Below are positions 8,671-31,383 of a stretch of 64,000 nt of DNA, one piece after another. Origin of the DNA: an uncultured cyanobacterium (GTDB lineage Bacteria > Cyanobacteriota > Cyanobacteriia > Cyanobacteriales > Nostocaceae); NCBI GenBank assembly GCA_963706595.1, contig OY970166.1, positions 2,368,001 to 2,432,000 on the forward strand, read 5' to 3'. The notes beneath the pieces were generated by a model, which saw only the letters and a program-made list of their open reading frames with translations, was not told the DNA's origin and made no database searches. The translations under genes and the position numbers were made by a program. Numbering within the stretch: position 1 is the first letter of the stretch; the number at the start of each line of letters is the position of its first letter.

Positions 8671-8782
8671 ACCAAAGAGATTTTCCAGTCCTAACAAGAG
8701 AATTTAACTGTAAATCCAGTTCCCCTCCTCGCTTGCGGGGAGGGGCTAGGGGTGGGGTCTTCATGTCATAATTTACTCACAT

Positions 8783-8813
8783 TCTCCGTCTAGGGTTCAA
8801 AACTCTCCGTCTA
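8783..8813 (+). promoter_or_regulatory. Direct repeat tctccgtcta x2 with 21-bp period; candidate AraC operator
   Basis: Exact 10-mers at 8783 and 8804 upstream of the receptor gene; palindrome ttgctaattattagcaa at about 8863-8879 is Fur-box-like. Confidence 0.45.
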
Positions 8814-8900
8814 CTGTATAGACTTGACCTGTATAAATTACATAAACTCTTCCCACAGATAGTTGCTAATTATTAGCAATATTTAATTTGCATTTGTGGA

Positions 8901-11420: not shown

Positions 11421-11445
11421 CTCATAAATTGCTCATAGGGTAGTT

Positions 11446-11668
11446 ATAGGACTCCTATTTGAGTTTTGTTGGCGTAGCTTATAAACACGTAGTTGACTGA
11501 CAGGCTTAAAATAGTTCATTAGACGTAGGTTGGGTTAAGCGCAGCGCCACCCAACGCGACCAATGATGTTGGGTTTCCTTACGTCAACCCAACCTACAAT
11601 TTTTTTGCAATATTTTAAGCTTGTCACGCCAATACTTATTTTTTTCATAAATCAAATCGGATTCCTAT
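11446..11668. mobile_element. Three nested inverted-repeat elements (MITE-like)
   Basis: Outer IR ataggactcctatttga/tcaaatcggattcctat (15/17); middle tgacaggcttaaaata/tattttaagcttgtca (15/16); inner gtaggttgggtt/aacccaacctac. Confidence 0.65.
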
Positions 11669-11731
11669 TACATATAGCCCTTGAATACTATCAGGGCTGT
11701 TTAATTACCAAATCCATCGCCAAAGCATTCA

Positions 11732-12712: not shown

Positions 12713-12877
12713 TCCGTAGCATCTGTTCTAGCATTATTATCTGCGTTTATCTGCGTGCATCTGCGTTTAATTATTACTGCTTGTACCTTAATTAAATGAA
12801 GAATTGCTATATCGCATATCTTAACGCAATATTTGGAATTAGCGGCGCACATTATCCTTCTCCGAAATAACTAGATA

Positions 12878-13852: not shown

Positions 13853-14763
13853 TATTTGATTCTAAAAATCGAGAAATACTGCAAATATCTCCAGAATTAG
13901 CTAATAGTAATATACTGGGATTTTTAATAGAAATATTAAATCTTGCTCAAAGCAATTTAGATAGTTTTTATACTGAGGGCATTATTTTAACTCAGCTTCC
14001 TGATGATGTTGAGGTGATTTCACTTAATGATTATCTACAACCAGATAGACTTTTATCTGATTGGCAAACCAGCGAAATATACCCAAAAACTCAAGATATT
14101 CGCATTGCTGCATCTATTTGGAATAAAGTTTATAGCTGGACAACATTACCAGGTGTTTTAGCTTTGATGACTTGGGCGGGAGTAGGGTTAGATGCTTCTA
14201 TTGATAATGTGAGTTTTGTTTTGGAAGATGATAAACCCAAGGCGTTATGGTTTCATGACTTGAGTGGTACTGTCATTTATCCTCAAAGATTACCTGTAGC
14301 AATTCCCGAAAATTATCCAGGAAAAATAGTAAATAGCGTTGCGGACTTACATGAATTTGTTTTTAGCAACTTATTCCAGCGCAATTTTGCACCAATGATA
14401 GACAGAGTTCATGGTTTAACTAAACTCTCTAAAAAAACTATGTGGGGTAATGCTGTAAATGCTTCTGAAAGACAGTTTGCTGAATTGAGTAAATGTATTA
14501 ACTCAGAAGCAATAAAAATAGATTATTCCACCTTGTATGAACAACAATATAGTAGTGTCATGCCAGGACGCAATCCTCTTTACAACTTAGTACGTAGTGA
14601 ACAAATCAACGAACCGGGTTTACCAGCAAAAACCACAGTGAGACGCACCTGTTGCTTATATGCGTTTATTCCTCCAGGAGATGAAAAGTGTACAAATTGT
14701 CCTCTTCTCACACCTCAAGAACGTATCGCTCAAATGAAGCAATACATGACAGAAGATGAATAA
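13849..14763 (+). CDS. FhuF-like ferric-siderophore reductase (2Fe-2S)
   Basis: C-terminal RRTCC-x11-CxxCP motif, MWGN motif; overlaps both neighbours. Confidence 0.8.
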   Translation: MIFDSKNREILQISPELANSNILGFLIEILNLAQSNLDSFYTEGIILTQLPDDVEVISLNDYLQPDRLLSDWQTSEIYPKTQDIRIAASIWNKVYSWTTLPGVLALMTWAGVGLDASIDNVSFVLEDDKPKALWFHDLSGTVIYPQRLPVAIPENYPGKIVNSVADLHEFVFSNLFQRNFAPMIDRVHGLTKLSKKTMWGNAVNASERQFAELSKCINSEAIKIDYSTLYEQQYSSVMPGRNPLYNLVRSEQINEPGLPAKTTVRRTCCLYAFIPPGDEKCTNCPLLTPQERIAQMKQYMTEDE

Positions 14764-16078
14764 AATGTCACAACAACCAAATTCCGCCAGTATGCGTAAT
14801 TTTCTCATAGTCTGGCTGGGTCAGCTAGTTTCTGCTATGGGTAGCCAAATGACCGGCTTTGCTATTGAAATTTGGGCTTGGGAAATTACAGGTAAAGCCA
14901 CTACTTTGACTTTAGTGGGTTTTTTTAGTTTACTTCCCAGTATTATTATTACCCCGATTAGTGGTGTAATTGTAGACCGTTTTAATCGGAAATTATTAAT
15001 GATGGTAGGTGATACTGTCGCCGTTCTCAGCACAGTTATGATTTTGTGGCTGCATCTCACCAATAATTTGCAAATTTGGCACTTTTACCTCACAGGCGCA
15101 ATTGTTGGGACTTTTAACCAATTTCAATCTTTAGCTTATTCGGCTTCAGTCTCGCTGATGATTCCCAAACAACATTATACCCGCGCTAGTAGTCTGGGAT
15201 TTTTATCTAGTTACGGTAGCCAAATTCTTGCACCTGCTTTAGCTGGATTTCTTTACACAATAATTGGTTTTGTCGGAATTTGGTTGATTGATATTTTGAC
15301 TTTTACTATAGCAATTGGCAGTTTATTTATAGTCAAAATTCCTCAACCACCACCTACGAAAGAAACTGAAAATATAGCCAACATTTGGCAAGATTTAGGA
15401 TTTGGTTGGCGTTATATTGTTAATCAAAAAGGTTTGCTAGCACTATTGATAGTGAATATATTATTTTGGCTACCCCATGATATCGGTAATTCTTTATATA
15501 CACCAATGATTTTATCTAGAAGTAATAATAATACTTTAGTGTTAGGAAGTTTAGCTTCTGCGGCTGGTTTGGGTGGTGTCATGGGGGCAATTATGATTAG
15601 CACTTGGGGAGGATTTCAACGCAAAATCAAAGGTGTTTTATTGGGGATGATTGGTGCAGGTATCAGTAAAATTATCTTTGGTTTGGGTAGAAGTCCTTGG
15701 GTTTGGATTCCGGCTCAATTTTGTTCTTCTTTGAATTTTCCTTTGAATGGGAGTTCAGATAATGCGATTTGGTTGGCTAAAGTTGCGCCGAATTTGCAGG
15801 GAAGGGTTTTTGGGGCGCGATCGCTTGTCTTACAAATAGCTTCTGCTGTAGCCTATTTAATAGCCGGACCTTTGGCTGATAATATGTTTGCACCTGCTTT
15901 GAGTACAGATAGTAGTCTGTTTTGGGGAATATTTGGCACTGGTACTGGTGCGGGAATTGCGGTGTTGTATGTAATTTGTGCGTTGTGTATGTTGCTAGTG
16001 GGTTTAGTGGGGTTGACAGTCCCCTTAGTGCGGGATGTGGAAAAGACTGTCCCTGACCATGATCAGGTCATTTTGTAG
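14756..16078 (+). CDS. MFS transporter
   Basis: About 12 hydrophobic segments; motif A GVIVDRFNRK; QGRVFG. Confidence 0.9.
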   Translation: MNKMSQQPNSASMRNFLIVWLGQLVSAMGSQMTGFAIEIWAWEITGKATTLTLVGFFSLLPSIIITPISGVIVDRFNRKLLMMVGDTVAVLSTVMILWLHLTNNLQIWHFYLTGAIVGTFNQFQSLAYSASVSLMIPKQHYTRASSLGFLSSYGSQILAPALAGFLYTIIGFVGIWLIDILTFTIAIGSLFIVKIPQPPPTKETENIANIWQDLGFGWRYIVNQKGLLALLIVNILFWLPHDIGNSLYTPMILSRSNNNTLVLGSLASAAGLGGVMGAIMISTWGGFQRKIKGVLLGMIGAGISKIIFGLGRSPWVWIPAQFCSSLNFPLNGSSDNAIWLAKVAPNLQGRVFGARSLVLQIASAVAYLIAGPLADNMFAPALSTDSSLFWGIFGTGTGAGIAVLYVICALCMLLVGLVGLTVPLVRDVEKTVPDHDQVIL

Positions 16079-16269: not shown

Positions 16270-17202
16270 CTACCCTTTTCCGTTGTCATTTGCTGCCATT
16301 GCGCCGGGGCTTTTCAACTGGTAAATTGCAAACACAACATAATAAGCCACAGTAAACATGATCCCAGAGAAGATTTGCCCTCCCCAAGGACCGTGCCAGA
16401 AGTCAAAGGTCGGTCTACCCCAGTAAAGCACCGCTAAGACTAACACTACTACTCGCGGAATATTGAACACAATCGCGATCGCTATCCCACTCACCATAGC
16501 CAGGCTAATACGCCACCAGACCTGCTTTAAAGTCAAACCTAACCAGAGACTCAGCCCGGTTAAAGAAATTACCATATCAAACCCGGTGCAGGCATAGCCC
16601 ACTCTGACAGATTCTTCTCCTACCAAAATGAGGTTTTTGGCGGCGATCGCTGGTTGCCCGATGACCTGGAGTGCTATACTACCTAGCCAAGCCGTGAAGT
16701 TTTCAGCCACTTCGGGTTCGATGATGCTGCTAAAGATGCGATCAGCCAAAAAAACAGTATTGGGATACATACTCACCAGAATCATCAAACAGGCCAGGGG
16801 ATAGCGCCAAAAGAGTCTAAATCCAAAGGAACTCCAGCCCACTCCCACGACTACGAGCAGCCAAATGAACGCCTGGACTGATACCGAGTCTCTACAGAAG
16901 GGGAGCCAAAATGCACTACCCATTATCAGCAGATGACCAATTAAGCGTTCATCGTGAGAGACTCGCATTTGCCGCAAGGTGTCTCGCTCAGTCCACAGCT
17001 TTTTTAGCCCGAAGTACAAAAAACCGCCATTGAACAACAGAGCGGCACTACCAAAGAGAATTGTAGACAGCAGGGTTCCTGCCCACACCGGGAAGTAAAA
17101 CAGCCCGGTTACGCCCGCCAGCGTTAACATCCGGCCATGATGAGTCTTGAGAGACTGCTGCCAAATATGAATTATCTGCCTGGGCTTGAGCTTTTTTAAC
17201 AT
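16270..17202 (-). CDS. crtC: Exosortase-family transpeptidase, cyanoexosortase C-like
   Basis: Multi-TM protein with Cys (YACTG), Arg (FNIPRV) and His (FWHGPWGGQIF) triad; adjacent to a PTPA-CTERM gene. Confidence 0.8.
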   Translation of the reverse strand: MLKKLKPRQIIHIWQQSLKTHHGRMLTLAGVTGLFYFPVWAGTLLSTILFGSAALLFNGGFLYFGLKKLWTERDTLRQMRVSHDERLIGHLLIMGSAFWLPFCRDSVSVQAFIWLLVVVGVGWSSFGFRLFWRYPLACLMILVSMYPNTVFLADRIFSSIIEPEVAENFTAWLGSIALQVIGQPAIAAKNLILVGEESVRVGYACTGFDMVISLTGLSLWLGLTLKQVWWRISLAMVSGIAIAIVFNIPRVVVLVLAVLYWGRPTFDFWHGPWGGQIFSGIMFTVAYYVVFAIYQLKSPGAMAANDNGKG

Positions 17203-17284
17203 CGCATCAATACATTAACTGACTGGGCTACTTTACCTGTTTGATCATCTGCACTGCCAAAGAACCGTCGCCCTGGTTCGGCAA

Positions 17285-17956
17285 TCAAATTAGGAGGGCA
17301 ATAGCAATAAGTGCGAATCCAGAGACCAGCAGGTTGCCTATAGCTACAGCTAAGAGCTTGTACAGCCTGTTTTGGGTATTGGTTTTCTGTTGCTGGGCCT
17401 GCTGCATCAACTGTTGAGAGACCTGCTCTAAACGTTCTGGGGTGATGTTAGGGTCTGGGGTCTCGGTGTTGGACTGAGCTATTTCTAACTGTTTTAAGGC
17501 TTGGGTTGATTGGTAATCAATATTCCCGATGGCCTGATCGCGAAGCTGAATGGTATCTCGAAATCCCAAAACCCCTGAGAGAATAAAGACCACGCCTAGC
17601 ACTAAGCAAAACCGGGTAACAATCCGTTTGAGGTAACGAGCGTCGAGCAAACCAAGACATAACAACGCCAGACCAGAGATCAGCACAATGCTGCGATCGC
17701 TAACCATGCGGAGGACACTAAATCGCCATTCCGCGGCCAGAAAATTCAGGGGTAACGCCACGCCAGTTAGGTCAACCAGAAACCCCGCAATGCAAGCCAA
17801 CCCCACAATTAGTGCCAGCTTATGCCCTACAGACTTGAAGCGCAATGGAAAACTGTTCAGCAGCTGTTTAGTATTCGTCCGCACCCATTTAGTCCATCCC
17901 AACTTAGGTAGTCTGATTGCTCCTAACTTAGGTCGTCTGATTGCTAGTAAACACAT
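17285..17956 (-). CDS. HpsJ-like membrane protein associated with cyanoexosortases (start uncertain)
   Basis: LPLNFLAAEWRF...SDRSIV, three TMs, Gln-rich coiled loop, terminal TM; context. Confidence 0.65.
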   Translation of the reverse strand: MCLLAIRRPKLGAIRLPKLGWTKWVRTNTKQLLNSFPLRFKSVGHKLALIVGLACIAGFLVDLTGVALPLNFLAAEWRFSVLRMVSDRSIVLISGLALLCLGLLDARYLKRIVTRFCLVLGVVFILSGVLGFRDTIQLRDQAIGNIDYQSTQALKQLEIAQSNTETPDPNITPERLEQVSQQLMQQAQQQKTNTQNRLYKLLAVAIGNLLVSGFALIAIALLI

Positions 17957-18199
17957 GATAATCTCATCAAAATCAACACTTGGGCAGGGGGAAGAGGTTC
18001 ATTTTCCCCAACCCTTGGTGGATGGGCATTTATAACTGTGCTATCGCGCGGCGGCGATAACACAGAGAATTTTCTCTTAAAATAGCCGTTAGCCATACAT
18101 CCCTGAAAAAACATAGGGTTTTGTGCTTTTCGTCCTAACTGATCAAATAATGCCTCCTGGCAAATTGCTAGGAAACAGAAACACAAGTTAAGTTTAGGT

Positions 18200-18820
18200 T
18201 TAAGACTCTTCTTTTGCTACTTCTTGCTGGCGTTTCTTACGCATTGCAGCTATCCACATACCTACTAGACCAGGTAACATCGCTGGAGTGGGAATTACGG
18301 GGTCGGGGGCGGGTACGAAGTCTAAGTTGAAGATTTCAGCTCTTGATCTAAGCCCCCCAGTACCGCCGCTTGTAAGAGTTGTGATGCGAAATCCGAAAAC
18401 ATCACCTGCGACAACATTTGCAGAGAATGGAAGAGTAGATTCACTGAGAATAGTTGCCAATGGAGTTAGTACATCATTCAACTGAAATTCAAGTTGAGAT
18501 GTGCCAGTCTGACGGGGTTGGAAGTTCCAATCAAAGTTGAAAGTGCCATCTGCTACACCTGTTATTAAGTAAGTACTAAAGGTATTAGGTGTAGTTAGAG
18601 GGCTACTACGAGAGGCGAACTCAATAAAATCAGGAGCGTTGCTCTCATCTAGAAATCCACTCGCATTTGGGCTATTGCTCAAAGTCCAATTGCTTGGATC
18701 GAAATCACCTTCAAAACCAGCAGCATAGCTGGGTGCAGCCATTACCAAACTGCCACAACATACAGAAGCAGTCGCTGCTGCAACTAAGAAACCACGATTC
18801 AGTGTGCTTTGCGCGAACAT
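18200..18820 (-). CDS. Secreted PTPA-CTERM sorting-domain surface protein
   Basis: RBS GAGGAG before ATG 18820; signal peptide ending APSYA; C-terminal IPTPAMLPGLVGMWIAAMRKKR (motif, TM, basic tail). Confidence 0.85.
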   Translation of the reverse strand: MFAQSTLNRGFLVAAATASVCCGSLVMAAPSYAAGFEGDFDPSNWTLSNSPNASGFLDESNAPDFIEFASRSSPLTTPNTFSTYLITGVADGTFNFDWNFQPRQTGTSQLEFQLNDVLTPLATILSESTLPFSANVVAGDVFGFRITTLTSGGTGGLRSRAEIFNLDFVPAPDPVIPTPAMLPGLVGMWIAAMRKKRQQEVAKEES

Positions 18821-19106
18821 AGAAATGTATCTCCTCACTTATTAATACGACGTTTTTACGTATAAATATCCATTTCCTGATGATTTATTGAAAATCTGAC
18901 CAGTTTTAAGTTGGATTTTCTCTTTTCATCTCAGTGAAATCGACTATGTACACAATATCATAGGTATATGGTAGTGCCAATAAACTTCATCAATATTTTG
19001 CAAAATTACTTTTAACATCATAATTCCGGATTATCACAGTCATAACTTGTAATTCTGACGACAGAGGCAAAATATACTGAAATTGTTTCATATAAATACT
19101 GATTGT

Positions 19107-19670
19107 TTAAGGTCTTGCACAAGCTGCTTCACCAGCAACAGGATCGGGATAAATAGCTAAAGTGTGATAATCAGGAGCAATATCTTCATATAATATTCTG
19201 AAAGTATACAGTTTACTTCTACTTTGCTCTTCAGTAATAACTGTTAAAAGTGTATTGTCTGTTTGAGGCAGTCCGGGAATATTCAGCCTTTCAATTCGCC
19301 GCAGTTGAATCACATTGGCTGACGATTTTGCACAATCTCCTGAAGTCAAATTACGTTCTGCACCAAACTGCATACACATCGGTCCATCAAAATCCATAGT
19401 TACCTGTGATGGGTCGTTTAACCACACTTTTTTAATGGTTTCGCCAGCTGGCAAAAAGCTTAAATTGGTTCCTTGCTGATAGGAAACTTTGATAGTAGGT
19501 ACGACTCCTCCTAAACCTTGTGCATGGCAAGAAAACATGGAACGGAGAACGGAATTATTAGCTAAAACTCGACCTGTAAATAATAATATAGCTGCGGAAA
19601 AAATCAGAGAAGTCAGAGACAATAAATTAGGATATTTTAATTTTTTTTCTATCAAGTTAATATGTTTCAT
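19107..19670 (-). CDS. Exported protein, candidate VirB9-like T4SS component
   Basis: Signal peptide; beta-rich segment GTNLSFLPAGETIKKVWLNDPS; last gene of the operon. Confidence 0.5.
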   Translation of the reverse strand: MKHINLIEKKLKYPNLLSLTSLIFSAAILLFTGRVLANNSVLRSMFSCHAQGLGGVVPTIKVSYQQGTNLSFLPAGETIKKVWLNDPSQVTMDFDGPMCMQFGAERNLTSGDCAKSSANVIQLRRIERLNIPGLPQTDNTLLTVITEEQSRSKLYTFRILYEDIAPDYHTLAIYPDPVAGEAACARP

Positions 19671-19766
19671 GGCTGCAAATATGGAAGTGAGTTGATGACA
19701 AACATAAAAGAGGTTTAGATACCCGACTTCTTAAAGAAGTCGGGTATCTATCTATTCAACTACGAA

Positions 19767-21311
19767 CTATAATTGCATGGTTCTATTGATGTATATTTCT
19801 ACTTCTTTACCAGCTGGCATAAACCAAACATTTGTTTGTTGCATCATGCGGGCGATCGCTTGTTGATTACGTTGTGAAATTTGGGGTACTACAGAGTTTA
19901 AACCACCTTCTAAAATTCCAGCCGGAATATTGCGTCTATTGTTATTGTTGGTGACGACGGTGCTACCATCCCCAACTGTGACTCTGGATTCAGTCCGATT
20001 AAATAACTCGGCTCCTTTACCAATTCCTCCCAAAACAAATAGCCCTAAATCCATTCCCGCTATCGATGTTCCTTGATTGGGATATTTATCTGCTACTAAA
20101 GGTTTCCCTTGGGGAGCGCGAACCATCATGGCATTACTGGGTAAGCTCTTTTCTCTGAGTTCGCCGTTATCTTCTGAAATCACTTTAACTACATTCAACC
20201 GCAGTAGCCCTTGTTCGGAAATAGAACTAATTTCAGCTAATAATTCCGTATTCACAGGTAAAGCGATCGCACCATCAACTGATTTTAGTGGATTTGTCAA
20301 ACGCAAAACAAATACATTACCGTCTTCATTACTTTCATTATTCTTTGACTTAGTAGTTTCTCCAAATACAGCTGTTGCTAAAACAGCTTTGACACTACTC
20401 CCAACTTTGATAGATTTCGAGCTTTGTGATGGTGCTTGGCTGACTAAATTATCTGGCTGTGGTGGCGTTGGTTCCGGGTTAGAATTGCTGACTTGGGCTG
20501 CTTGAGGATTAATTTTTGGTACAGATAAAGCTGTATCCACTCTCGATTGAGCAGTGGTATTCACCTGACCATAGCTACCTAACTTGGCTAACCTTGTCCA
20601 TTCCTCCAGGGGGTCTGGTGGAGATGGTGGAGTCTCTGGAGTTGCAACTGCTATCGGTGCGGGTAGAGGTGTAGGCGCTATAGCAACTGGCGCAGCAGCA
20701 GGCCTTTCCACAATTCGCTCCACAGTGACTATACGAGGTTGAGGTATAGAAGCCGTTTGCACAGGTTTAGGTATGCTTTCTCTCACCTGTGGAGTTTCCA
20801 CCCGCGCAGCTACTCTATTTCTGAGATTTTGTTGAGCTGCTGTCACTGTCTGTGCTTGTTCAGCTAGGGCTAATTTCGTTTTGAGAATCTCAACTTCCTG
20901 CTCTAAATTACGCTGCGGGGATTCACTGATTGTAGGTAATGGTGCTGTTGAGGAAACAGGATTATTTTTTGGCTGTTGATTGCTGGTATTCATTACCTGC
21001 GATAAAAATACCCCAGCAACTACCACTATAACCAAGGTAGCACTACCCACCAAAGCTAATTTAGCAAAGGGATTATCTGCAAGAGATTGCTCAGTTTGGA
21101 CTTCTTCTGGTTGAGACTGGGAAAGTTGCAAATTAGCTGAGTCTGTTTCTACTGTTTCAACGTTGACTTGTGGAGATTCTTCTTCAAAGCCAACCAATTT
21201 AGCCATTCTCGATTCCCAATCTGAAGAGTTTACTTCTGGTTCCTGCTGGTCTGGGATTGGTTTGACTAAATATTTTGCAGAAAGTTCGGGATGAATTGAA
21301 TAAGAAGTCAT
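19767..21311 (-). CDS. TrbI/VirB10-like protein
   Basis: Single TM, coiled coil, Pro-rich linker, C-terminal domain from IKVGSSVKAVL to MPAGKEVEIYIN. Confidence 0.75.
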   Translation of the reverse strand: MTSYSIHPELSAKYLVKPIPDQQEPEVNSSDWESRMAKLVGFEEESPQVNVETVETDSANLQLSQSQPEEVQTEQSLADNPFAKLALVGSATLVIVVVAGVFLSQVMNTSNQQPKNNPVSSTAPLPTISESPQRNLEQEVEILKTKLALAEQAQTVTAAQQNLRNRVAARVETPQVRESIPKPVQTASIPQPRIVTVERIVERPAAAPVAIAPTPLPAPIAVATPETPPSPPDPLEEWTRLAKLGSYGQVNTTAQSRVDTALSVPKINPQAAQVSNSNPEPTPPQPDNLVSQAPSQSSKSIKVGSSVKAVLATAVFGETTKSKNNESNEDGNVFVLRLTNPLKSVDGAIALPVNTELLAEISSISEQGLLRLNVVKVISEDNGELREKSLPSNAMMVRAPQGKPLVADKYPNQGTSIAGMDLGLFVLGGIGKGAELFNRTESRVTVGDGSTVVTNNNNRRNIPAGILEGGLNSVVPQISQRNQQAIARMMQQTNVWFMPAGKEVEIYINRTMQL

Positions 21312-21313
21312 AC

Positions 21314-21365
21314 AATTTTAGATTTTAGATTTTGGATTTTGGATTTTAGATTGCGGATTTTCGAT
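21314..21365. repeat. STRR-type heptamer tandem (atttt(a/g)g)n
   Basis: About 7 units; a second tract at 23133-23165. Confidence 0.8.
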
Positions 21366-21442
21366 TGATTCTACAGATAAATATGGCTGGGTGCTTGTAA
21401 AATTAAGGCGTATTGCTCATGGTGTATTAAATGGTAATAATG

Positions 21443-22123
21443 TCAAGAACAATTGTTGTCTTTGATATCACATATCTCATAAATTTCTAGCCTAGCTTCG
21501 CCCAAACGGTAAGCGGCTAAATGCCACGGTAATGGTTTGGCTGGGAGTGAAATTGCTGGTTCATCTATGGCGCGGACTAAAATTTTTTTATTGAACGCAG
21601 TTGATATTCCCAGATTATTAGAACCACTAAAATTTAATTGATTAGCCAATATTTCTATTTTCCATTCACCATCAGCTATTTTTGTGGGTTGAGAGACTTT
21701 TTCTACTATTAATATATATTCAGTTGCCTGATTAATATTGGCTAATTGTCCTGTAGGATTTAAGTTAGTAATTTCTGCCTGAAACTTGGGTTTCAAATTA
21801 GGCGCTAAGAGTTGTGAACTAATTTCCCATACTGTAACAGGTGGCTGTTTCTGTGACCAAGTAAGCATCAGAGTCATGGTTTCACCCACAAAGCGGCGGA
21901 TTGTTTCTGGATGTCTTTGATCAGTTTGTTGAGGATTTACAGTAATCGCCCGACCATCAACAAGTTGCACCAAGCTTTCGGGTGTTAACTGCCGTTTTAA
22001 ATCCTGAATCATAGAACCGTGGAACAAAAGTAATAGCAAGCTAAATAGATGTAAACCGAATGTTCCTACAGCTAATAATGGCAATATACTACTTTTTTTG
22101 TTTTCTGGCTTAACTAATTGCAT
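21443..22123 (-). CDS. Bitopic membrane protein, candidate VirB8-like
   Basis: N-terminal TM, LVQLVDG, PETIRRFVGETM...W, FNKKILVRAID; paralog of 22305-23129. Confidence 0.55.
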   Translation of the reverse strand: MQLVKPENKKSSILPLLAVGTFGLHLFSLLLLLFHGSMIQDLKRQLTPESLVQLVDGRAITVNPQQTDQRHPETIRRFVGETMTLMLTWSQKQPPVTVWEISSQLLAPNLKPKFQAEITNLNPTGQLANINQATEYILIVEKVSQPTKIADGEWKIEILANQLNFSGSNNLGISTAFNKKILVRAIDEPAISLPAKPLPWHLAAYRLGEARLEIYEICDIKDNNCS

Positions 22124-22304
22124 AAATACGCACCATATAAATTATCAATAAGAACATCTCAATTAAAAAAAACTGACGAAGACCGAACCAAAAAACCTAT
22201 CAAACCCTCTTTCCTTGGCGTTCTTTGCGTCTTCTCCCAAAGGGAGAGGCTAGCGCCAAGGCGGTTCGTTCTTCCATTACTCCCTTTAATTCATTAATAA
22301 AAAA

Positions 22305-23129
22305 CTATCTTGTAAAACTATCAGAACTTATTTGCCTACCACAAGGGTTTGATTTATCCTCACCGAGATTACTATAATTATCCAATAAACATAAATTCCG
22401 AATTTCGTAAATTTCTAATTTGTCAGCCCGATTGCTATAAATTGCTTTTTGAATGTCGGTAGTATTATTAGCTAGAGGATAGGGAAAATAATCTACTGCA
22501 CGCACCAGGAAGTCTTTATTAAAGGGTGTGACTATTTTTCGATCATCATCCTGTTTTTTTTGAATCAGGTCGGCTACCATACCGACGCGCCACTTACCAG
22601 GGGCTATTTGTTCGGGAGGATAAATTCGTTGGATAAGTAATTCTGCTGATATCACTTGACTAGGATTGTTAGAGAATACTTCTGGTGGTGTCATTTGCGC
22701 GATCGCACTTAAAAAACCTTTACGAAAATCTTCGGATAGTGCAAAACTCGCGACCCAACTGCTGGTAGTCACTTTTTGGCTACCACCTGCTAGGGTTCTC
22801 ACCTGGATTCCGGGATCTGGTTGGGGTTTTGCAGCTGCTTCTATAGTTTGTGGTGGTAGAGTTCCCGACCAGTTAAACATGGCTATCATGGTTTTACTGA
22901 TGAATTGGCGAATGGCTTCGGGGTCTCTGGCTAAATCATCAACAGCAGCGACGGGTTGACCATCGATCATTTGTACAAAGTTAGGCGGTTTTCTCAGGCT
23001 GAGTTGGCGAATATTCAACCCTTGCAAGATGAATAAAACTAACACTAATAGATGTAAACTAAAGGTGGCGATCGCAAAGATTTTTAAAACATCTCTGGTG
23101 GGTTTTCTTTTCTGAAGTAAATTGGTCAT
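22305..23129 (-). CDS. Bitopic membrane protein, candidate VirB8-like
   Basis: N-terminal TM, FVQMIDG, PEAIRQFISKTM...W, FNKDFLVRAVD. Confidence 0.55.
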   Translation of the reverse strand: MTNLLQKRKPTRDVLKIFAIATFSLHLLVLVLFILQGLNIRQLSLRKPPNFVQMIDGQPVAAVDDLARDPEAIRQFISKTMIAMFNWSGTLPPQTIEAAAKPQPDPGIQVRTLAGGSQKVTTSSWVASFALSEDFRKGFLSAIAQMTPPEVFSNNPSQVISAELLIQRIYPPEQIAPGKWRVGMVADLIQKKQDDDRKIVTPFNKDFLVRAVDYFPYPLANNTTDIQKAIYSNRADKLEIYEIRNLCLLDNYSNLGEDKSNPCGRQISSDSFTR

Positions 23130-23195
23130 ACAATTTTGGATTTTAGATTTTGGATTTTGGATTTACCCTACAGATATATCTAGAGGATTGAAAAT

Positions 23196-24245
23196 TTATA
23201 TCCTATCTTTGACCACAGCAGTGGTATTATTAATCGCACTAAAAACCGCAAATCCTCCAGCCCCAGCCACAGCTAAAGATAATAATGGGGCTAAAATTCC
23301 TAGAAAAATTATGAACCACATTAAGTCAGGATTAGCATTAGGATTTTCGGCTGGACCATTAATTACAACTGCGGCGGTGACAGCAGCAATTATATTAAAT
23401 GAAATCTTGGCAATTCCCGCCGAGAAAAAACCTGTCAGCCACGCATAAATCGGTTTACCAGCTACAGGTAGCAAAGATGCACCCACAGCCAACGGACCTA
23501 AAGCAGCTATCAGCAACATAGAAGCTTCTATTAAATTTTGAAAGGCATATTGCAAGGAAATTAAAAAGCTTTTAATACTGGTTTGGGCTGTATTACCCAA
23601 CAAAGAATTAAAGGTAGTATCTGATAAATTCTCTGTCCCAAATTTCAGCGAAATTACCTGATTTTCCAGTCTTTGAATCCAGATTCTATTCCCGTATAAA
23701 TTTCTATATTCTTGCCAAAGGTTATCTATTTGGTCGCTGGCTTGAGCAAAACATTGGGTTTGTTGTTCTCCTGTGAGTGATTGACAAGGACGTAGTAAAG
23801 AACCAGCCACTTCTTCAGCCAAACTCATATTTAGTGCTTGCTGATAAGTTTGTTCAGCATCTGCTGTAGTCACTACTTGCTGATTGACTGTATTAATAAA
23901 GTTTCTAACTTCCAAGGTCAAATTAGAAAGTATGCTACCATCTCCCCCATTACTTAATAACATGACTACGATAAAAGGCCAAATTAAACCCGTTATTGGG
24001 CGGGAATATTCACTGTATATAACATCTTTGAGCCATTGCATCATAAAAAATAATAGAGTTCCTACAGCAAAAAATACACCCAGATTTGTGAGCGCTCCAT
24101 ATAAATTGTTACTGGTATTATTTTGTAATAAATCTAGCCATTGATTATCCCAACTTTCAGCCATGCTTCTCGCCGTTACAGCACCACTATCGAAAGTTTC
24201 ATTGATACCAATTTCCGGGAATATTTGTAAAATATAAAGCTGCAT
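23196..24245 (-). CDS. Polytopic membrane protein, candidate VirB6/TrbL-like
   Basis: Two N-terminal TMs, large loop, C-terminal TMs with GPLAVGASLLP...W. Confidence 0.6.
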   Translation of the reverse strand: MQLYILQIFPEIGINETFDSGAVTARSMAESWDNQWLDLLQNNTSNNLYGALTNLGVFFAVGTLLFFMMQWLKDVIYSEYSRPITGLIWPFIVVMLLSNGGDGSILSNLTLEVRNFINTVNQQVVTTADAEQTYQQALNMSLAEEVAGSLLRPCQSLTGEQQTQCFAQASDQIDNLWQEYRNLYGNRIWIQRLENQVISLKFGTENLSDTTFNSLLGNTAQTSIKSFLISLQYAFQNLIEASMLLIAALGPLAVGASLLPVAGKPIYAWLTGFFSAGIAKISFNIIAAVTAAVVINGPAENPNANPDLMWFIIFLGILAPLLSLAVAGAGGFAVFSAINNTTAVVKDRI

Positions 24246-24261
24246 TTTAGTTCACAATTTC

Positions 24262-25047
24262 CTAATTCTCTTCTCTACCAAACAAATCGATTTGGGCTGT
24301 AGTCCGCATCAGTCTTGCAGTTTCCGTGGCTGAATCTACTCGACGCGAGCGATTCATCTCATCCATTTGCTGGGAAATACTTGCTAAATTTAAATTAGAG
24401 TATTGTAGAGATTGATTTGATTGCACTGTCTGAGCCAATGTTTCTCCAATAATTTTTGATTGCTCACTTTGAATCTTCAGAGTTTGTAATTGCAAATTAA
24501 TTTGACCAACATTTGTCTGTGCTGATAACTGTTGAGCCGCATCTTGAATTAGCGGAATTTTGCCCATAATTTCAGTGATTAAGTTTTGGTTATTTTGCTC
24601 TGCATTATTGGCAGTTTCTATAATCGTGATAATTGTGTTCTCAGTCTGATCTAACTTGTCTTTTAACCGTCGTTGTCCATCTCTACCCATGAGACTTTCT
24701 ACTGAACTGCGAGTAATTAGACGGTTCAGTTCATTACTTACCGCATTTGATTGCACAACCGGATTATTTTCAAATTTATCTGTTGTCGGGTTAAATAATA
24801 TATCCTGGCGAAAACTTTTCCCAGCCTCAATCGGATTAGGTAAATTCAATTCTCCTGTGGAATTATTTAGCGCGTTTTGACCTCTAACCTCTAAAGGTCT
24901 TAAGGTTTCGCTGAGATTATTTCTGAGATAATTTTGCATATCCACAGAGTAATATTGAAAGTCTGTCCAAACTCTGCCTAATTGTGCCATTGCTGGTAGC
25001 ACTAATAAGCCGGAAAGAGTTAGTGTCAAAAATGTAGTTTTTCGCAT
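24262..25047 (-). CDS. Exported helical Gln/Asn-rich protein, candidate VirB5/TrbJ-like
   Basis: Signal peptide MRKTTF...PAMA from ATG 25047; coiled-coil-like composition; lies between VirB4- and VirB6-like genes. Confidence 0.55.
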   Translation of the reverse strand: MRKTTFLTLTLSGLLVLPAMAQLGRVWTDFQYYSVDMQNYLRNNLSETLRPLEVRGQNALNNSTGELNLPNPIEAGKSFRQDILFNPTTDKFENNPVVQSNAVSNELNRLITRSSVESLMGRDGQRRLKDKLDQTENTIITIIETANNAEQNNQNLITEIMGKIPLIQDAAQQLSAQTNVGQINLQLQTLKIQSEQSKIIGETLAQTVQSNQSLQYSNLNLASISQQMDEMNRSRRVDSATETARLMRTTAQIDLFGREEN

Positions 25048-25189
25048 ATATTTTGAAGGGATGAGGGAGGAACGAACCGCCAAGTACGCCAAGTGCGCCA
25101 AGGAAAGAGGAAGGAAAGAGATTCGGTGCAGTTATTCAAATCCAAATTTAATTCTCTGCGCCTCTGCGCCTCTGCGTGAGATTCCTTTC

Positions 25190-27937
25190 TCAACTCCCCC
25201 GCAACGAAGCGATTAACTGGCGTGCAAATACAGAAATTGCTTCATATTTATCCCTGTGTTGTAGCATGGCTTTTTGACGTGCAGTTTGTTCATTGGGGTT
25301 GTTAGCAACTACTGCTAATTGCTCAAACCCTGGATAGTAACGACAGAATGTATAAATGCCGTTATCATCTAACAACCATTGACTATAAATACCTTCTTTA
25401 CGAGGAAAAAAGCTTTCTGTAGCATTACGCGCAATAATATCACGGGGATATTTTAAAATGTTCACAAAACTATCTACTGCTACTGGTTGAATTCTCCCAA
25501 TTAATCTGGTTGACAAGTTTTGTAAAATCTTTGATGCGGCTTTAGATTTGGCGATAGTATCAGGGTCTTGTGCTGATAAAATGACTCGAATCCCGGCTTT
25601 CGCACCGTTAGCGCAAATTCTGCCCACTAAATCAGCAATTTGATCAAATTCAAATAATATTGGGGCTTCGTCAATGAAGAAGATAGAAGCTGGACTACTT
25701 AACGCCCGTCGTAAAGCGGCGGAATAAGCACTTAAAGACAGTACGGCTGCGTCTTCGTTATCTGAGAGGTTCCGCAATGCAAATACTAAAAGTTGTGCGT
25801 CGGTGGGAAAGCTAGATGGTGCAGAAATAGACTGTCCGACGCGACTCGAAAGCCAAAACCGTAACCGCAGTTGAATTTGACTGAGTGCGTCATCTACGCG
25901 ACCACTCAGAGAATCTAATTGCAGATGTTCTGGGGAACAGAAACAGAGAAAGTCTTTTAAAGTGGGGGTTTTTTGCCAAGCTTCACTCCCAAATCCGCCG
26001 GCTATAGCTTGTTTATATCGTTCTTGAATCCCTGTATCTGCAAAGAAAGCGCTTAAAGCCAAGTTGAGTAGGGAACGCACGGTTTGGGACAACAGTTGGT
26101 TTTCGGTGGATGACCCTAAAACCATTGTCATTAATGCTGATTCTAAGAACCCAGTATAATCCAATAGGCGATCGCGTTGTATTTCTGGAGAGAGCGATCG
26201 CAAATCAGGCTGCTCAAATAAATTATTGGCTTGTTTAGAAATATCAAAATAGGCTCCATTCCCCTCCATAAATTCTGTATAGTCAGTAAAGGTAGATGAA
26301 CCATCAGGTTTAGGAAAATCCAAAGCCACCACAGGAATCCCATGCGCTAAAGCCTGAGTTAAAATTCCCGATACCAAAACCGATTTACCAGCACGAGTAG
26401 TAGCAAACAAAGCTAAATTTTTGTGTTGGTTAAACAAATCTAAATGTATGGGAGTTCCCCCTTCTTCAGCAATTAATTCAAAACCGTGACTATCTCCTGC
26501 TTTAGTTAACACTAAAGGCATTAATCCGGGAACTTCACTGGTTAAATATAACTGACGACGGTTGAAAGGTTTTACTAACAAACCCTCCCAAACTATGGGT
26601 AAAGATTGCAGCCAAATTTTCCAAGTATATTCTATTTCTCTAATGACTTGCGCTGGTCTTTGAAAACAGTTTTCTATATATCTTGTGGCTTCATCTAATT
26701 TGGCTACAGTGGGACGATGAACAAAAATAACTATGCTTGTGTATATCGGTACTGCTCCTTCATATAATTGTTCTTGGGCTGCTACCGATTTTTTTAATTT
26801 TAATTGAGCATTAACATCAATAGTTTTACTTTTTTCTTGAGCCATAAGTGCTGTCATATTCGACTGTTTCAGCACTCGTTGCAAAGTGTTTTTAACTATA
26901 GCTGGATTAGCGGCGGTTAACTCGCAAAATATTTCTGTATCTACTATTGTTTCTCTGGCTAATAATTCCCATAAATAACGCATCTGAGCAAATTTATTTG
27001 GCCAACCACCGGGCTTTTCTAGAAACGTTAATGCCCCAATATAGCGATTTTTGACATTTACCCAACGGCGGTCAGCACAGGGTACATTAGACTCCATCAA
27101 CAAAGTTGTACTGTGGATATTTTCGATCAGTAACTTGGTACTAGCTAAGTCTGAATTAACTTGCTCATGTAGTCCATTTTCATCTAACTGAATTAATTGA
27201 GGAATTTCTATCGGTTGTGTATCATTAAATTTTTTCCAGGCGTGTTCCCATAATTGTTCCGCATTTAAAGGTTTGACATCTAACCCCATTTTGTTAGATA
27301 AAAGCTGTTCCCAACGAGAAAATCCTTGTTGGTAAGCTTTAATAATCAGAGTTTCGATGCGCTGGTTTTGAACTTCTGCCAGTTCACCTTTAAATTTTAA
27401 CCACCATAATTCACCTTTGGATAAAAGTTTTTCAATCCAATCATCTGTATGTGTAGTATTCGGTTCAATAGTATAAGTCACATAAATTTGGAGAAATTTC
27501 GGTTTACGAATTCCAGATTTAGTAAGTTCTTGAATTCTAGCTCTTTCTGCTGTTAATAAGAATTTAATATCCCGTGATGGTGTCCGCTTGACTAAATCGG
27601 CTAGTTCTGTTTGTCGTTTGGTGTCAGAACTAAAAGACCCTATATGTAAAGTCATTTTTTCACCTTCAGGAATATCTTTTAAACCTGATTCGATATTATT
27701 AAAAATTGTGTCTATTTGTTCAGACCGTAAAGTAGTATGAATGCCTCGACACTCAAACCCAAACACAAAGCAAAACCGATCTTTTTGGGTTTCTTTGTTC
27801 AAAATGTAAGCGCCGATATCACGACCATCCAGGGAAATGCGTAACATTGTTGCCAAATGTAAAGCATCTTCAAATGGTGTTAATCTACTTTCTTTGCCGG
27901 CGATGCTTAGGCTTTGTTTTCCGATTTTTTGCTTCAT
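25190..27937 (-). CDS. VirB4-like type IV secretion ATPase (915 aa)
   Basis: Walker A ATTRAGKS, Walker B FFIDEAP, GAKAGIRVILSAQ; overlaps an upstream VirB3-like gene. Confidence 0.8.
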   Translation of the reverse strand: MKQKIGKQSLSIAGKESRLTPFEDALHLATMLRISLDGRDIGAYILNKETQKDRFCFVFGFECRGIHTTLRSEQIDTIFNNIESGLKDIPEGEKMTLHIGSFSSDTKRQTELADLVKRTPSRDIKFLLTAERARIQELTKSGIRKPKFLQIYVTYTIEPNTTHTDDWIEKLLSKGELWWLKFKGELAEVQNQRIETLIIKAYQQGFSRWEQLLSNKMGLDVKPLNAEQLWEHAWKKFNDTQPIEIPQLIQLDENGLHEQVNSDLASTKLLIENIHSTTLLMESNVPCADRRWVNVKNRYIGALTFLEKPGGWPNKFAQMRYLWELLARETIVDTEIFCELTAANPAIVKNTLQRVLKQSNMTALMAQEKSKTIDVNAQLKLKKSVAAQEQLYEGAVPIYTSIVIFVHRPTVAKLDEATRYIENCFQRPAQVIREIEYTWKIWLQSLPIVWEGLLVKPFNRRQLYLTSEVPGLMPLVLTKAGDSHGFELIAEEGGTPIHLDLFNQHKNLALFATTRAGKSVLVSGILTQALAHGIPVVALDFPKPDGSSTFTDYTEFMEGNGAYFDISKQANNLFEQPDLRSLSPEIQRDRLLDYTGFLESALMTMVLGSSTENQLLSQTVRSLLNLALSAFFADTGIQERYKQAIAGGFGSEAWQKTPTLKDFLCFCSPEHLQLDSLSGRVDDALSQIQLRLRFWLSSRVGQSISAPSSFPTDAQLLVFALRNLSDNEDAAVLSLSAYSAALRRALSSPASIFFIDEAPILFEFDQIADLVGRICANGAKAGIRVILSAQDPDTIAKSKAASKILQNLSTRLIGRIQPVAVDSFVNILKYPRDIIARNATESFFPRKEGIYSQWLLDDNGIYTFCRYYPGFEQLAVVANNPNEQTARQKAMLQHRDKYEAISVFARQLIASLRGS

Positions 27938-28262
27938 GGTTAACTTCTAACAAGCTTTGATAACGTGCAAAGCCTCTTGTCCAAGTGGGAACTCCCACGA
28001 ATTTGCTTAAAAAGCGCCAACTCCTACCACCACTTAAAATCCACCAAGTTGCTATTCCCCAACCGGCAATTAATACTGTCCATAACCATCTTTGGAAATC
28101 ATCTGCAAAAATCCCCCCAAAAACTCCATTAACTACAAAGTAAGCCGCTAAAATAATCACAATCCAAGGAAAGATTTGGTCAGCAGGAATTGGCCCTAAT
28201 GATGGTTGTGACCCTAGTATCTGATTGACTGGACGAAATTCTGGCTCTCTTTCTTGAGTCAT
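27885..28262 (-). CDS. Small two-TM protein, candidate VirB3-like
   Basis: Two hydrophobic segments and basic tail; overlaps the ATPase start. Confidence 0.6.
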   Translation of the reverse strand: MTQEREPEFRPVNQILGSQPSLGPIPADQIFPWIVIILAAYFVVNGVFGGIFADDFQRWLWTVLIAGWGIATWWILSGGRSWRFLSKFVGVPTWTRGFARYQSLLEVNHEAKNRKTKPKHRRQRK

Positions 28263-28337
28263 AAATTTTTAGTTCGTAATTCGTAATTACTATTGCATTG
28301 GGTTCTTAACCATTGAATATTTTAGTTAGGTACTTAT

Positions 28338-28954
28338 CTAATTACTACTATCACCAATTACAAAGCCTGTCAGGACATCAGCAACAGTGACAGCGACTAC
28401 TACTAATAAAGGAACTCTGGCGATACTCTGCCAATCTTCATCTTTACGCACTGCATTAATTACACCAATCAGAGAAACTGCAATATAGAGTAAATAAATT
28501 GCCCTTAACACATTGAATATTAAGCTGACGGCTGGTTGGCTATTGTTACTGTTTCCTGTCCCTTGAGTTAAAGTATTGCGGAAAAAATCTTCAGCTCTAC
28601 CAAAAAATTGTGCATATACAGGTGCAGCAAAATAGTCTAACCAGAATAAACACAGGATGATAGATCCTGCTAATATTTGTAATAGTATAAGCCATCGCTT
28701 TGGCAAATGCACTTGCTGTCCAACTTGTTGCATGACTATTGCGATTAAACTACCCGCTAGCAAACAAAAAAGCAGCATGGGACTTTTTAAGCTAATTACG
28801 CTTAAAAACACACGCACAAGCCATCAAAAATGGCACGGATTCAACTATGCTCAGATGCCATGATTCCCACAACCTTTGTCAATTTGTCAGATGTTTTCGT
28901 TGCACTAGCAGTTAAACCTTTGCTGAGTCTTCTCACACTGGATTTTCTAGACAT
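28338..28954 (-). CDS. Membrane protein with VirB2/TrbC pilin-like C-terminal part; probable true start 28954 with two +1 frameshifts
   Basis: ORF 28338-28817 has an APVYA|QFF cleavage-like site then two TMs; removing single bases at about 28879 and 28804-28808 gives a 204-aa ORF from ATG 28954. Confidence 0.55.
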
Positions 28955-29469
28955 TTACCAATTTCCCTGTTACGTATCACAAATATCAGTCGTATTCGTT
29001 CTTAAAATGTTTTACCATTTCACACAGCTAAGTTTCATACTTAAGTAATAAATTTATATCACCAAAATATAATATAGGTTCAACGTGTTACATTTTATTA
29101 AAGATGTATTAATCAATTCTTAAGATTTAGTTAAGTCAAATGATTTTCTTTAAAGTAATATATTATACCAAGTAGCTAAAAGCTTTATTTACTGATAGTA
29201 TATAAAGCTACTATAAAGAGGCTATGAGTTTATTGAAAGCTTATCACTATATCACGATCAGTAACAGCAATTATAAATTCAAAAAATCAAGATTTTGAAT
29301 TTAGCTTTTCTCAGGCTAAAGCAGTGCCTCTGAGCTTTTTAAGTCTTTTAAGTTTTGCCCGCAACAATGAAACTAGTTCCAGCGTTGGAAACACAAGTTG
29401 AACAGTTATTAACACCAGGGTCAATTCCAAGTGCTAGTTTTGAATTTAACTTGATAAAGTAACGCATTT

Positions 29470-30030: not shown

Positions 30031-31383
30031 TTAGAGAAATTCGGCACGAAACTGATTAACAACCCGATCTAGTCCCACGGAATGAGCAGCTTTGAATAAA
30101 ATGCGATCGCCTGTTTGCACAAATGTCTTTAATCGAGCTACCAAATCAGCATGAGTGGTAAAGCATTCTGATGGGATACCCTCTGCACTTTGAGCGATCG
30201 CTTCTGCATCTGTGCCATCCACTAAAACCAGCAAACCGTCTAATTGCAACCTCTGCACCGTTTCACCGACTCTTTGGTGCAATTGCAGCGATCGCTCTCC
30301 CAATTCTTTCATTGCACCTAATACCGCAATTTTGCGTTTTCCTGGTGTATCTGCCAATAATTGCAAAGCTGCTTCCATAGCTTCTGGTGCAGCATTATAA
30401 GTCTCATCTAAGAGAATAATATCATGAGGCAGGCTAAACTGTTGCGATCGCCCCGTAGGCATATTCACTTTCACACCATTTTGCAGCCTTGACCAGTGGA
30501 TTCCCAAAACCTGCGCCACAGCTAAAGCTGCTAAAAAATTACTGGCATTGTGACGACCAGGTAAAGGTAAAGGTAGCTGCATTCCCCCAACTTTGATCGT
30601 TTCGTTATCGATCAGCACTCCTTGGATATCGCCAGCAGACAAGCCATAACTCACAACTTCCCCAGACCAAACTTGCTGCGCTGTAGCCATTAACAGAGGA
30701 TTGTCATGATTGAGAATAGCTACACCATCTGCAGGCATTTCGGCTAATAATTCACATTTAGCCGAGCGATCGCTTCTTCAGAACCCAATAACTCAATATG
30801 TGCGGTTCCCACATTGGTAATCACCCCAATATTCGGAAGGGCTATTTGCGTCAGTTCAGCGATTTGTCCCTCACCCCGCATGGCCATTTCCACCACAGCA
30901 TAGTCATGTTCTGTACCCAGTTCTAACAAAGTTTTGGGAACGCCGATTTCGTTATTAAAATTGCCAAAAGTTTTGTGAACTCGTCCCTCAGTTGCTAATA
31001 CTGCGGCGATGAGTTCCTTAGTTGTGGTTTTACCTACAGAACCCGTCACCCCAATTACTGGAATATTCAAGCGATCGCGCCACCATCTGCGCCAGTTGCT
31101 GATATGCTGCTAAAGTGTTGTTAACTTGCAATACAGGTAAACCCGGATTTTCATAATCACCATCTACAATAGCCGCTATTGCACCTTGAGCGATCGCATG
31201 GGAAACGAAATCGTGTCCATCAAAATTTTCCCCTCGTAAAGCCAAAAATACTTCCCCAGGTTTGATCATCCGGGTATCTGTTTGGATACTGCTGCTGACT
31301 TGTGTTAAAGCAGCTTCAGATAAATTGATAGGTTGGGCGCACAGAACTGACAACAATTGGGAGATGCTAACAGACCAAGGCAT
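30031..31383 (-). CDS. murF: UDP-MurNAc-tripeptide:D-Ala-D-Ala ligase (two compensating frameshifts near 31088 and 30764; 450 aa if restored)
   Basis: LRGENFDGHDF, GVTGSVGKTTTKE, NFNNEIGVP, EMAMRG, DETYNAAPE, LGAMKELG across three ORFs. Confidence 0.92.

Follow-up and report, generated by a model that had tools for sequence, protein, structure and literature searches.

A chromosomal type IV secretion-like operon of Nostocaceae cyanobacteria, derived from conjugation genes and linked to phosphate limitation

The type IV secretion systems (T4SSs) closest to the one described here belong to mating-pair-formation class C (MPF_C), whose model plasmid is pCC7120alpha and for which the consulted part of the class survey reports homologues of VirB3, 6, 8, 9 and 10 but not of VirB2 (Guglielmini et al. 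2014, PMC4027160). Relaxase-less (MOBless) T4SSs have been noted in cyanobacteria, with protein transport as the suggested role (Guglielmini et al. 2011, PMC3158045), and the described type IV systems that lack a coupling protein are those of pathogens (PMC12857230). A T4SS that lacks VirD4 has no means of recruiting substrates from the cytoplasm; the known cases serve to secrete cargo from the periplasm (Ptl), to take up DNA (ComB) or to build adhesive pili (Trw) (PMC12857230, PMC13395361). Here we analyse an operon of nine co-oriented open reading frames (ORFs) on the minus strand (19107-28817, genes 1-9 in transcription order) of a 64,000-nucleotide stretch, hereafter the window, from an uncultured Nostocaceae cyanobacterium (contig OY970166.1, positions 2,368,001 to 2,432,000), the source genome (G000) being 5.57 Mb in one contig and 94% complete. 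The operon is MPF_C-derived and widely retained as a single copy under purifying selection, and it is very probably a domesticated, non-conjugative T4SS. Its orthologues are induced by phosphate limitation in one strain; control by the Pho system is likely, and we somewhat favour a function in phosphorus acquisition.

The nine genes, present and co-oriented as the initial annotation had claimed, match eight consecutive conjugation genes of pCC7120alpha (NC_003276.1) in conserved order, with identities for genes 1-9 of 40, 41, 53, 25, 32, 35/27, 26 and 44%, the paired value referring to genes 6 and 7 against the sole plasmid VirB8-like gene. The plasmid locus, which we take to be alr7204-alr7213, carries other tags in the annotation consulted. 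Apart from the paralogous genes 6 and 7, all operon genes are single copy in the source genome, and the nearest relatives are Nodularia records (VirB4 identity 92-98%). Gene 3 (25190-27937), the 915-aa VirB4 ATPase, aligns with the plasmid VirB4 at 53% over 925 columns. Its Walker A (FATTRAGKSV) and Walker B (IFFIDEAP) motifs are intact, as first read, and both are invariant in 80 of 80 related loci, these being the best 80 of 397 relatives, fetched with flanks of up to 10 kb on each side of the ATPase gene; the atypical Walker A also occurs in several conjugative copies. Matches of gene 3 to the NCBIfam VirB4/TraC models lie under their cut-offs (E 1e-15 and 4e-11), as does a weak AAA match in Pfam, and a PDB sequence search with VirB4 returned only two irrelevant designed proteins. 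Gene 8 (19767-21311), annotated as a Pro-rich TrbI/VirB10-like protein, passes Pfam TrbI (PF03743) with 43.6 bits against a cut-off of 35. The two bitopic proteins encoded by genes 6 (22305-23129) and 7 (21443-22123) are indeed paralogous, at 27-30% mutual identity; gene 7 lacks an internal 28-aa segment relative to gene 6 and matches the PF04335 VirB8 cluster of the Atlas (score 0.93, 198 of 256 features). Gene 9 (19107-19670) encodes an exported VirB9-like protein without the C-terminal helical domain, of roughly 70 aa, of conjugative homologues, and gave weak Atlas leads (TraK_N 0.82, CagX 0.79). Gene 2 (27885-28262), which overlaps the ATPase gene, encodes a membrane protein that is VirB3-like by position, and gene 5 (23196-24245) a VirB6-like membrane protein that is polytopic by hydropathy. 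Of the nine genes, Pfam identified gene 8 alone and NCBIfam gene 3 alone; the VirB9-, VirB3- and VirB6-like proteins, without a match in either, are homologous to the plasmid genes and only tentatively labelled.

The putative pilus components are less well fixed: of the VirB2-3-4-5-6-8-10-9 core proposed in the initial annotation, the VirB2 and VirB5 labels, for genes 1 and 4, are unproven positional guesses. Gene 1 (28338-28954) encodes a pilin-like candidate VirB2 with a long hydrophobic leader, a conserved processing site (A-x-A before the cut, QFF after it) and a three-helix mature part of about 90 residues. Fold comparison, suggested as a check at the outset, gave only weak pilin alignments: the mature fold matches the R388, N-pilus and Pyrobaculum pilins over 69-74 residues (Z 5.3-5.8), nearly the full pilin length, at ranks 12, 34 and 37 of 48161 and under unrelated helical hairpins, and neither Foldseek nor Pfam returned a pilin match for this part. 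Gene 4 (24262-25047), exported, all-helical and in the VirB5 position, is modelled as a long helical hairpin with generic coiled-coil fold matches, none specific; its likely start is the ATG at 25047, the ORF opening at TTG 25101.

No relaxase, coupling protein, integrase or partition gene was found among 42 window ORFs scanned with Pfam and 15 scanned with NCBIfam, which agrees with the absences first reported for the window. Similarly, the fetched flanks contain no type IV coupling protein (T4CP, VirD4-like) or MOB_V relaxase in any of the 80 loci; a search for the periplasmic protein encoded ahead of the coupling protein in conjugative loci was likewise negative (0/80). The whole-genome search proposed earlier was also negative for the families covered: the source genome has no match to three T4CP Pfam families (PF02534, PF10412 and PF12696, which do detect the MPF_C T4CP itself) or to profiles built from the fetched plasmid proteins, and no relaxase of PF01076, PF03432, PF08751 or PF03389 (MOB_H, MOB_C and MOB_T were not searched), unassembled plasmids remaining possible for these genome-level negatives. 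A profile of the lost periplasmic protein gave a weak match (E 0.0018) at source-genome position 3109429. The absence of VirB11 carries little weight, because this protein is rarely found outside MPF_T (PMC4027160) and none is annotated in the pCC7120alpha stretch. Elsewhere in the source genome (C1, about 4974950-4975810; L106) lies a DUF3854-like protein of a type seen on MPF_C plasmids, the searches run having detected no transfer genes, and in one conjugative locus (L087, 46-1203) the protein lost from our clade is fused to an M23 peptidoglycan endopeptidase, which hints at a cell-wall role.

The relationship between the operon and conjugative systems was resolved by VirB4 matches across 401 genomes of the phylum, which fall into two groups: 26 matches, each from a different genome, have 74% identity or more, and no other match exceeds 64%. 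Nine loci of the lower group were fetched: six have an adjoining coupling protein (one of them split), one is cut short and two are divergent and without one; those holding a VirB8-like gene have a single copy. In a tree of 30 sequences the upper group forms one clade (support 1.000) nested among conjugative MPF_C copies. The derived traits of this clade are the presence of both VirB8 paralogues (72 of 73 loci holding either), the VirB9-like protein without its C-terminal helical domain, and the lack of coupling protein, MOB_V relaxase and pre-T4CP protein in 80/80 loci. With gene 5 as the clade marker (E<=1e-90), the clade was detected in 246 of the 300 genomes of the family, spanning 52 of 65 genera and almost invariably as one copy, and in 24/46 and 16/34 of smaller family samples; outside the family, 3 of 367 genomes match. 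Across loci, all but two of 663 genes (661) have their full length, and both exceptions lie at contig ends; the ratio of nonsynonymous to synonymous substitution rates (dN/dS) for VirB4 is 0.03-0.13 in eight pairs in which neither genome has a T4CP match; in one pair, genes 4 and 8 reach 0.77 and 0.86. Together, transfer-gene loss, wide retention and purifying selection support the host-domesticated, non-conjugative machine envisaged in the initial annotation.

Comparison of the VirB4 tree with the species tree, also proposed there, showed partial agreement. With Snowella and one genome that lacked a secA match left out, 28 genomes were compared. Of 25 splits, the virB4 tree has 13 in common with the rpoB tree and 12 with the secA tree, about half, against 16/25 for the rpoB-secA control, and it is 1.2 times as long as the housekeeping-gene trees. 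Strict congruence fails: in the approximately unbiased (AU) test, virB4 rejects the rpoB+secA tree by 361 log-likelihood units, rpoB and secA rejecting each other by 119 and 190, so strict vertical descent is rejected. Inheritance was mostly vertical, and some transfer of the operon occurred. Rearranged copies of the derived clade outside heterocyst formers, in Snowella, Merismopediaceae and on an 879-kb Gloeothece replicon (L025, L032, L034, L036, L187), probably reflect such transfer. Another clade copy lies on a 170-kb record titled plasmid (L037), near a GATase/SIS (glmS-like) gene and in a genome without a T4CP match; it is possibly chromosome-derived or misassigned. Separately, a divergent MPF_C locus (L097, G020:C2) has a VirB4 of 1070-1120 aa and lacks a coupling protein within the fetched 20 kb, and ATPases similar to its own, forming a VirB4 group at 36-37% identity, occur in 9 of 19 genomes of one genus (g23, family f3). 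Such loci are possibly a second domestication or a plasmid family.

These data also bear on two accounts in which the operon still serves, or recently served, DNA transfer. The first is a helper mating apparatus, a DNA channel induced by phosphate stress that would borrow its coupling protein and relaxase from co-resident plasmids. An MPF_C-type T4CP does occur elsewhere in 41 of 64 carrier genomes, and the discordance of the virB4 tree (the 361 units above) fits an operon that has sometimes moved; against this, purifying selection persists where no T4CP was found (a match is absent in 23 of the 64, including the single-contig G147 and G251), the fetched co-resident T4CPs belong to complete systems of their own, and the clade has lost the pre-VirD4 periplasmic protein and the VirB9 C-terminal domain, both kept in the conjugative loci examined. 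We regard a helper role as improbable. The second is a decaying integrative conjugative element (ICE), which could be read from flanking genes that vary between lineages, from the L037 copy and that on the 879-kb, non-mobilisable replicon, and from the frameshifted gene 1 of this assembly, where the true start is the ATG at 28954, already taken as the boundary in the initial annotation (orthologues of 184-249 aa, median 205, in 79/80 loci) and the leader is split by two single-base insertions near 28813 and 28870. The same type of indel, however, affects nearby essential genes: murF is in three pieces (breaks near 30763 and 31091), and single-base indels without counterpart in relatives are also present in dnaK (near 32014) and gyrA (near 5290). 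Because murF and gyrA are essential, the indels in all four genes are most likely assembly errors; the assembly appears error-prone, and its pseudogene calls are unreliable. In addition, the genes of related loci are intact with low dN/dS, divergence exceeds that of housekeeping genes by a factor of only 1.2, a tRNA is in range at 1 of 57 loci (the window has none), no repeat pair brackets the operon within 7400-31500, and a lnt-gyrA site is common to distant lineages. A patchy distribution with attachment sites and a linked relaxase or T4CP, named at the outset as the sign of a decaying ICE, is therefore not what the 80 loci display, and this account is largely refuted and extremely unlikely.

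Evidence for phosphate control begins with a Pho-box-like array at 29095-29135 on the minus strand, which escaped the initial annotation. It comprises four 8-bp repeats, spaced at an 11-bp period and each with a perfect TTAA core, and begins 181 nt ahead of the ATG of gene 1. The array resembles the sites of the cyanobacterial Pho regulon, where SphR recognises 8-bp repeats that number three or more and are separated by 3-bp linkers (Su et al. 2007, PMC1906773); in the operon repeats TTAA is retained and the CCT tail mostly absent. Three perfect cores occur at 11 loci of the source genome and four at only 2, the operon and pstS. Of 78 clade loci, 45 have three perfect cores at -161 to -197, as against none of the 7 conjugative loci, and the array beats shuffled sequence (p<=0.05) in 49/80 versus 0/7. 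Under a matrix trained on six other Pho genes of the source genome, one training site of which was poor, the site takes rank 100 of 4325 when three repeats are scored and rank 43 with four. A scan for Sigma-70 promoters was uninformative (20 sites versus 34.6 expected). Orthologous sites have already been predicted: the tables of Su et al. 2007 list boxes for the 'hypothetical' units Ava_2887-2884 and all0471-0468, at ranks 10/54 and 15/57 in the two strains, in rows that do not connect the unit to type IV secretion (PMC1906773). These box sequences lie before gene 1 orthologues in three genomes (G059 with one mismatch, G289 with three, G618 exactly), and all0471-all0463 fit genes 1-9 in order and length.

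Expression data point the same way. In a published RNA-seq supplementary table for one experiment with N. spumigena CCY9414 (PMC9846622), we assigned the orthologues NSP_RS02510 to RS02470 by order, as nine genes below murF with TrbI eighth. Under phosphorus limitation their log2 changes at days 7/14 are 2.35/2.27, 2.00/1.96, 1.70/2.04, 1.88/1.90 and 1.92/1.48 for genes 1-5 and 0.95/1.30, 1.52/1.54, 0.95/1.35 and 0.82/1.45 for genes 6-9, with significant induction of 6/9 genes at day 7 and 9/9 at day 14; the flanking genes are flat (murF 0.07/0.31, lnt -0.38/-0.37, gyrA -0.10/0.38) (PMC9846622). The gradient, highest at the 5' end, fits a promoter at gene 1. Transcriptome-wide, 112 genes are up at day 7 and 77 at both times, six of the nine operon genes being among the 77; the available text of the paper makes no mention of the operon (PMC9846622). 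A phosphorus-starvation paper on Nostoc PCC 7118 had no terms matching the operon in its supplement. For the window itself no RNA run is listed, which has no bearing on expression. Nitrogen step-down, suggested in the initial annotation as a trigger, found no comparable backing. In Anabaena PCC 7120, six of the nine genes were examined and proved almost silent (0.09-6.8 reads per kilobase per million), without coherent change (PMC3141674), in a medium that we take to be phosphate-rich; gene 1 changed 1.2-1.9 fold and virB4 5.6-5.9 fold, which does not support nitrogen step-down as an operon-wide trigger. The gene 9 orthologue all0463 is listed as a heterocyst-core gene of unknown function, 7.7/10.6-fold up (PMC4365693), a rise that rests on 1 versus 8 and 11 reads.

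Phosphorus-scavenging genes also stand beside the operon promoter in at least five lineages. phoX adjoins it in L041 (with which L173 is counted), G251 and G455. Six loci of the Rivularia group have a metallophosphoesterase at this place and phoX behind it, L040 has an alkaline phosphatase, and 13 loci from Nostoc have a PstS-like binding protein, whose gene is the first one upstream in 12 of them. PhoX is present in 29 of 30 carriers, which were hand-picked, versus 8 of 30 non-carriers, and PhoD in 28/30 versus 19/30; in three within-genus contrasts, one of them physically linked, PhoX tracks the operon and treY and PhoD do not. The unrelated control treY, however, splits 21/30 versus 0/30, which weakens PhoX co-occurrence as proof of substrate. 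The non-carriers mostly have smaller genomes, also without treY, suggesting a free-floating lifestyle.

Taken together, these observations are best explained by a conjugative MPF_C T4SS that would have been domesticated once, early in heterocyst-forming cyanobacteria, and then wired into the phosphate-starvation response. SphR (PhoB) would bind the upstream array and activate one long transcript, and VirB4 alone would provide the power to build a VirB2-type pilus or piston that passes through a VirB9/VirB10 core. Lacking VirD4, the machine would recruit no cytoplasmic substrate, so that cargo would move only between periplasm and exterior; the likeliest cargo would be Sec/Tat-exported phosphorus-scavenging enzymes, for example PhoX, crossing the outer membrane or displayed on the surface. 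Export or display is favoured because cyanobacteria have no type II secretion system and the outer-membrane route of their Sec/Tat substrates is described as poorly known (PMC11424642), and because Ptl offers a precedent for two-step export in the absence of VirD4 (PMC12857230); we advance it tentatively. All steps after transcription are what we infer.

Several points weigh against this explanation. The cargo of the operon is hypothetical. Induction is modest, at 2-5 fold where phosphatases reach 30-200 fold. It was recorded in a single experiment with one strain and is not seen in ageing phosphorus-replete cultures, though pstS was raised there. The TTAA pattern was chosen after the site had been seen; a plain CTTAACCT consensus ranks the site only 1154 or 777 of 4325, and loci of the Rivularia and Tolypothrix groups mostly have a weak array or none. 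The neighbouring phosphorus genes may only share a Pho box. Because treY splits so sharply, PhoX co-occurrence is confounded by lifestyle, which explains much of the pattern; eight non-carriers keep PhoX, and in two other mixed genera the non-carrier retains it. Finally, a gene in the VirB5 position is kept, unlike in Ptl, which points towards a tipped pilus.

That last point leads to an adhesive or contact pilus without translocation, as in Trw, which phosphorus-starved filaments would extend to bind particles, other filaments or associated phosphorus-supplying bacteria, or to attack neighbours with periplasm-loaded proteins. The pilin-like gene with its conserved processing site and the retained VirB5-position gene suit such a structure, as do the rapid evolution of gene 4 and VirB10 (the fastest in the operon), the small, treY-less and seemingly free-floating non-carriers, and the precedent of Trw as a VirD4-less system keeping VirB5 (PMC12857230). 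Nonetheless, pilin and tip genes are single copy, unlike in Trw, the VirB2 and VirB5 identities rest on weak or generic fold matches, and the loci examined show no conserved effector or immunity genes next to the operon; we consider a contact pilus rather unlikely, though a close rival of enzyme export. Equally doubtful, and as close a rival, is an import machine resembling ComB, induced by phosphorus limitation to pull extracellular DNA or a phosphorus-rich polymer into the periplasm for nutrition, not transformation, where PhoX and other phosphatases would release phosphate for the Pst system. The Pho evidence and the PhoX association apply equally to import, ComB imports DNA having lost VirD4 and VirB1 (PMC12857230, PMC13395361), and two nucleoside hydrolases are up at day 14 of phosphorus limitation (log2 1.7 and 1.1). 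Conversely, a keyword search retrieved no row with an induced nuclease or nucleotidase, ComB requires VirB11 and lacks VirB5 (PMC13395361, PMC12857230), and the competence genes comEA, comEC and dprA show no induction (log2 values from -0.14 to 0.43), which counts against competence and not against feeding on DNA.

The surroundings of the operon are less conserved than its genes. Upstream on the minus strand lies murF (30031-31383), named in the initial annotation as the nearest intact gene and present here as three ORFs; the suggested synteny with murF across Nostocales proved narrow and was rejected, since murF is upstream in 11 of 80 loci (the Nodularia group) plus G512. Downstream, the oldest traceable neighbours are lnt and a gyrA/parC-type gene (3013-7537, plus strand): of the 67 loci holding gene 9, 9 (one Nodularia locus and eight of the Rivularia group) have lnt after it, as does G455, and gyrA comes after lnt wherever the locus extends far enough; in G225, lnt follows gene 8. 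In the window, 11.6 kb of later insertions separate gene 9 from lnt and gyrA. A sorting cassette directly after gene 9 (16270-18838; cyanoexosortase C (CrtC), an HpsJ-like C protein and a PTPA-CTERM protein) is a separate insertion, because it is present in only 1/80 loci. A low-GC iron-siderophore uptake island (7657-16078), inserted between lnt and the operon, encodes an AraC regulator, a TonB-dependent receptor, two periplasmic binding proteins, an FhuF reductase and a transporter of the major facilitator superfamily. Within the operon, a terminator-like perfect 17-bp inverted repeat (19716-19750, minus strand) lies between genes 8 and 9, and short tandem heptamer-type repeats occupy two spacers (21315-21382 and 23133-23179). 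Further away are an IS605/TnpB-like element in two pieces (39334-40560) and three consecutive ORFs with RTX calcium-binding repeats (55957-61328), perhaps one large secreted protein split by indels.

What is new here is the phosphate link of the operon; the MPF_C class and, in general terms, relaxase-less cyanobacterial T4SSs were already known. The open literature seen on the locus, on cyanobacterial T4SSs and on a phosphate link yielded no study of the function of the clade, and the part consulted of the MOBless survey names no cyanobacterial locus, clade, regulator or condition (PMC3158045). Nitrogen-fixing cyanobacteria are often phosphorus-limited, and the movement of their proteins and polymers across the outer membrane is described as largely unknown (PMC11424642). 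The all0471-all0463 orthologues, together with phosphorus starvation, offer a concrete gene set and condition for this question, in an operon that, depending on the sample, half to four-fifths of the family genomes retain, and whose six examined genes are nearly silent in a standard medium taken to be phosphate-rich. A nutrient-acquisition T4SS, whether as an outer-membrane phosphatase route or as an independently invented DNA-importing system for feeding, is in our view evenly poised between true and false; if true, free-living phototrophs would possess such a system, and an environmental, nutrient-driven case would join the short list of coupling-protein-less type IV systems.

Compared with pCC7120alpha, whose eight genes it matches in order at 25-53% identity, the operon lacks the T4CP, the MOB_V relaxase and a counterpart of the pre-T4CP gene, and has a duplicated VirB8, a shortened VirB9-like protein, a chromosomal single-copy location and a Pho-box-like promoter. 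Among VirD4-less systems, Ptl of Bordetella pertussis is MPF_T-like and has VirB11. Ptl would resemble the operon in its periplasmic cargo and two-step export; it lacks VirB5 and its cargo genes are known, whereas the operon is of class MPF_C with hypothetical cargo (PMC12857230). MOBless T4SSs differ in that the operon is also without a coupling protein. ComB of Helicobacter pylori is likewise chromosomal, domesticated and without VirD4 or VirB1, but is MPF_T, needs a distant VirB11, lacks VirB5 and works with ComEC (PMC12857230, PMC13395361), while competence genes are not co-induced with the operon in phosphorus-limited N. spumigena. Trw of Bartonella, also VirD4-less, keeps VirB2 and VirB5 (PMC12857230); it has multiplied its pilin and tip genes, whereas in the operon these are single and it is VirB8 that is duplicated.

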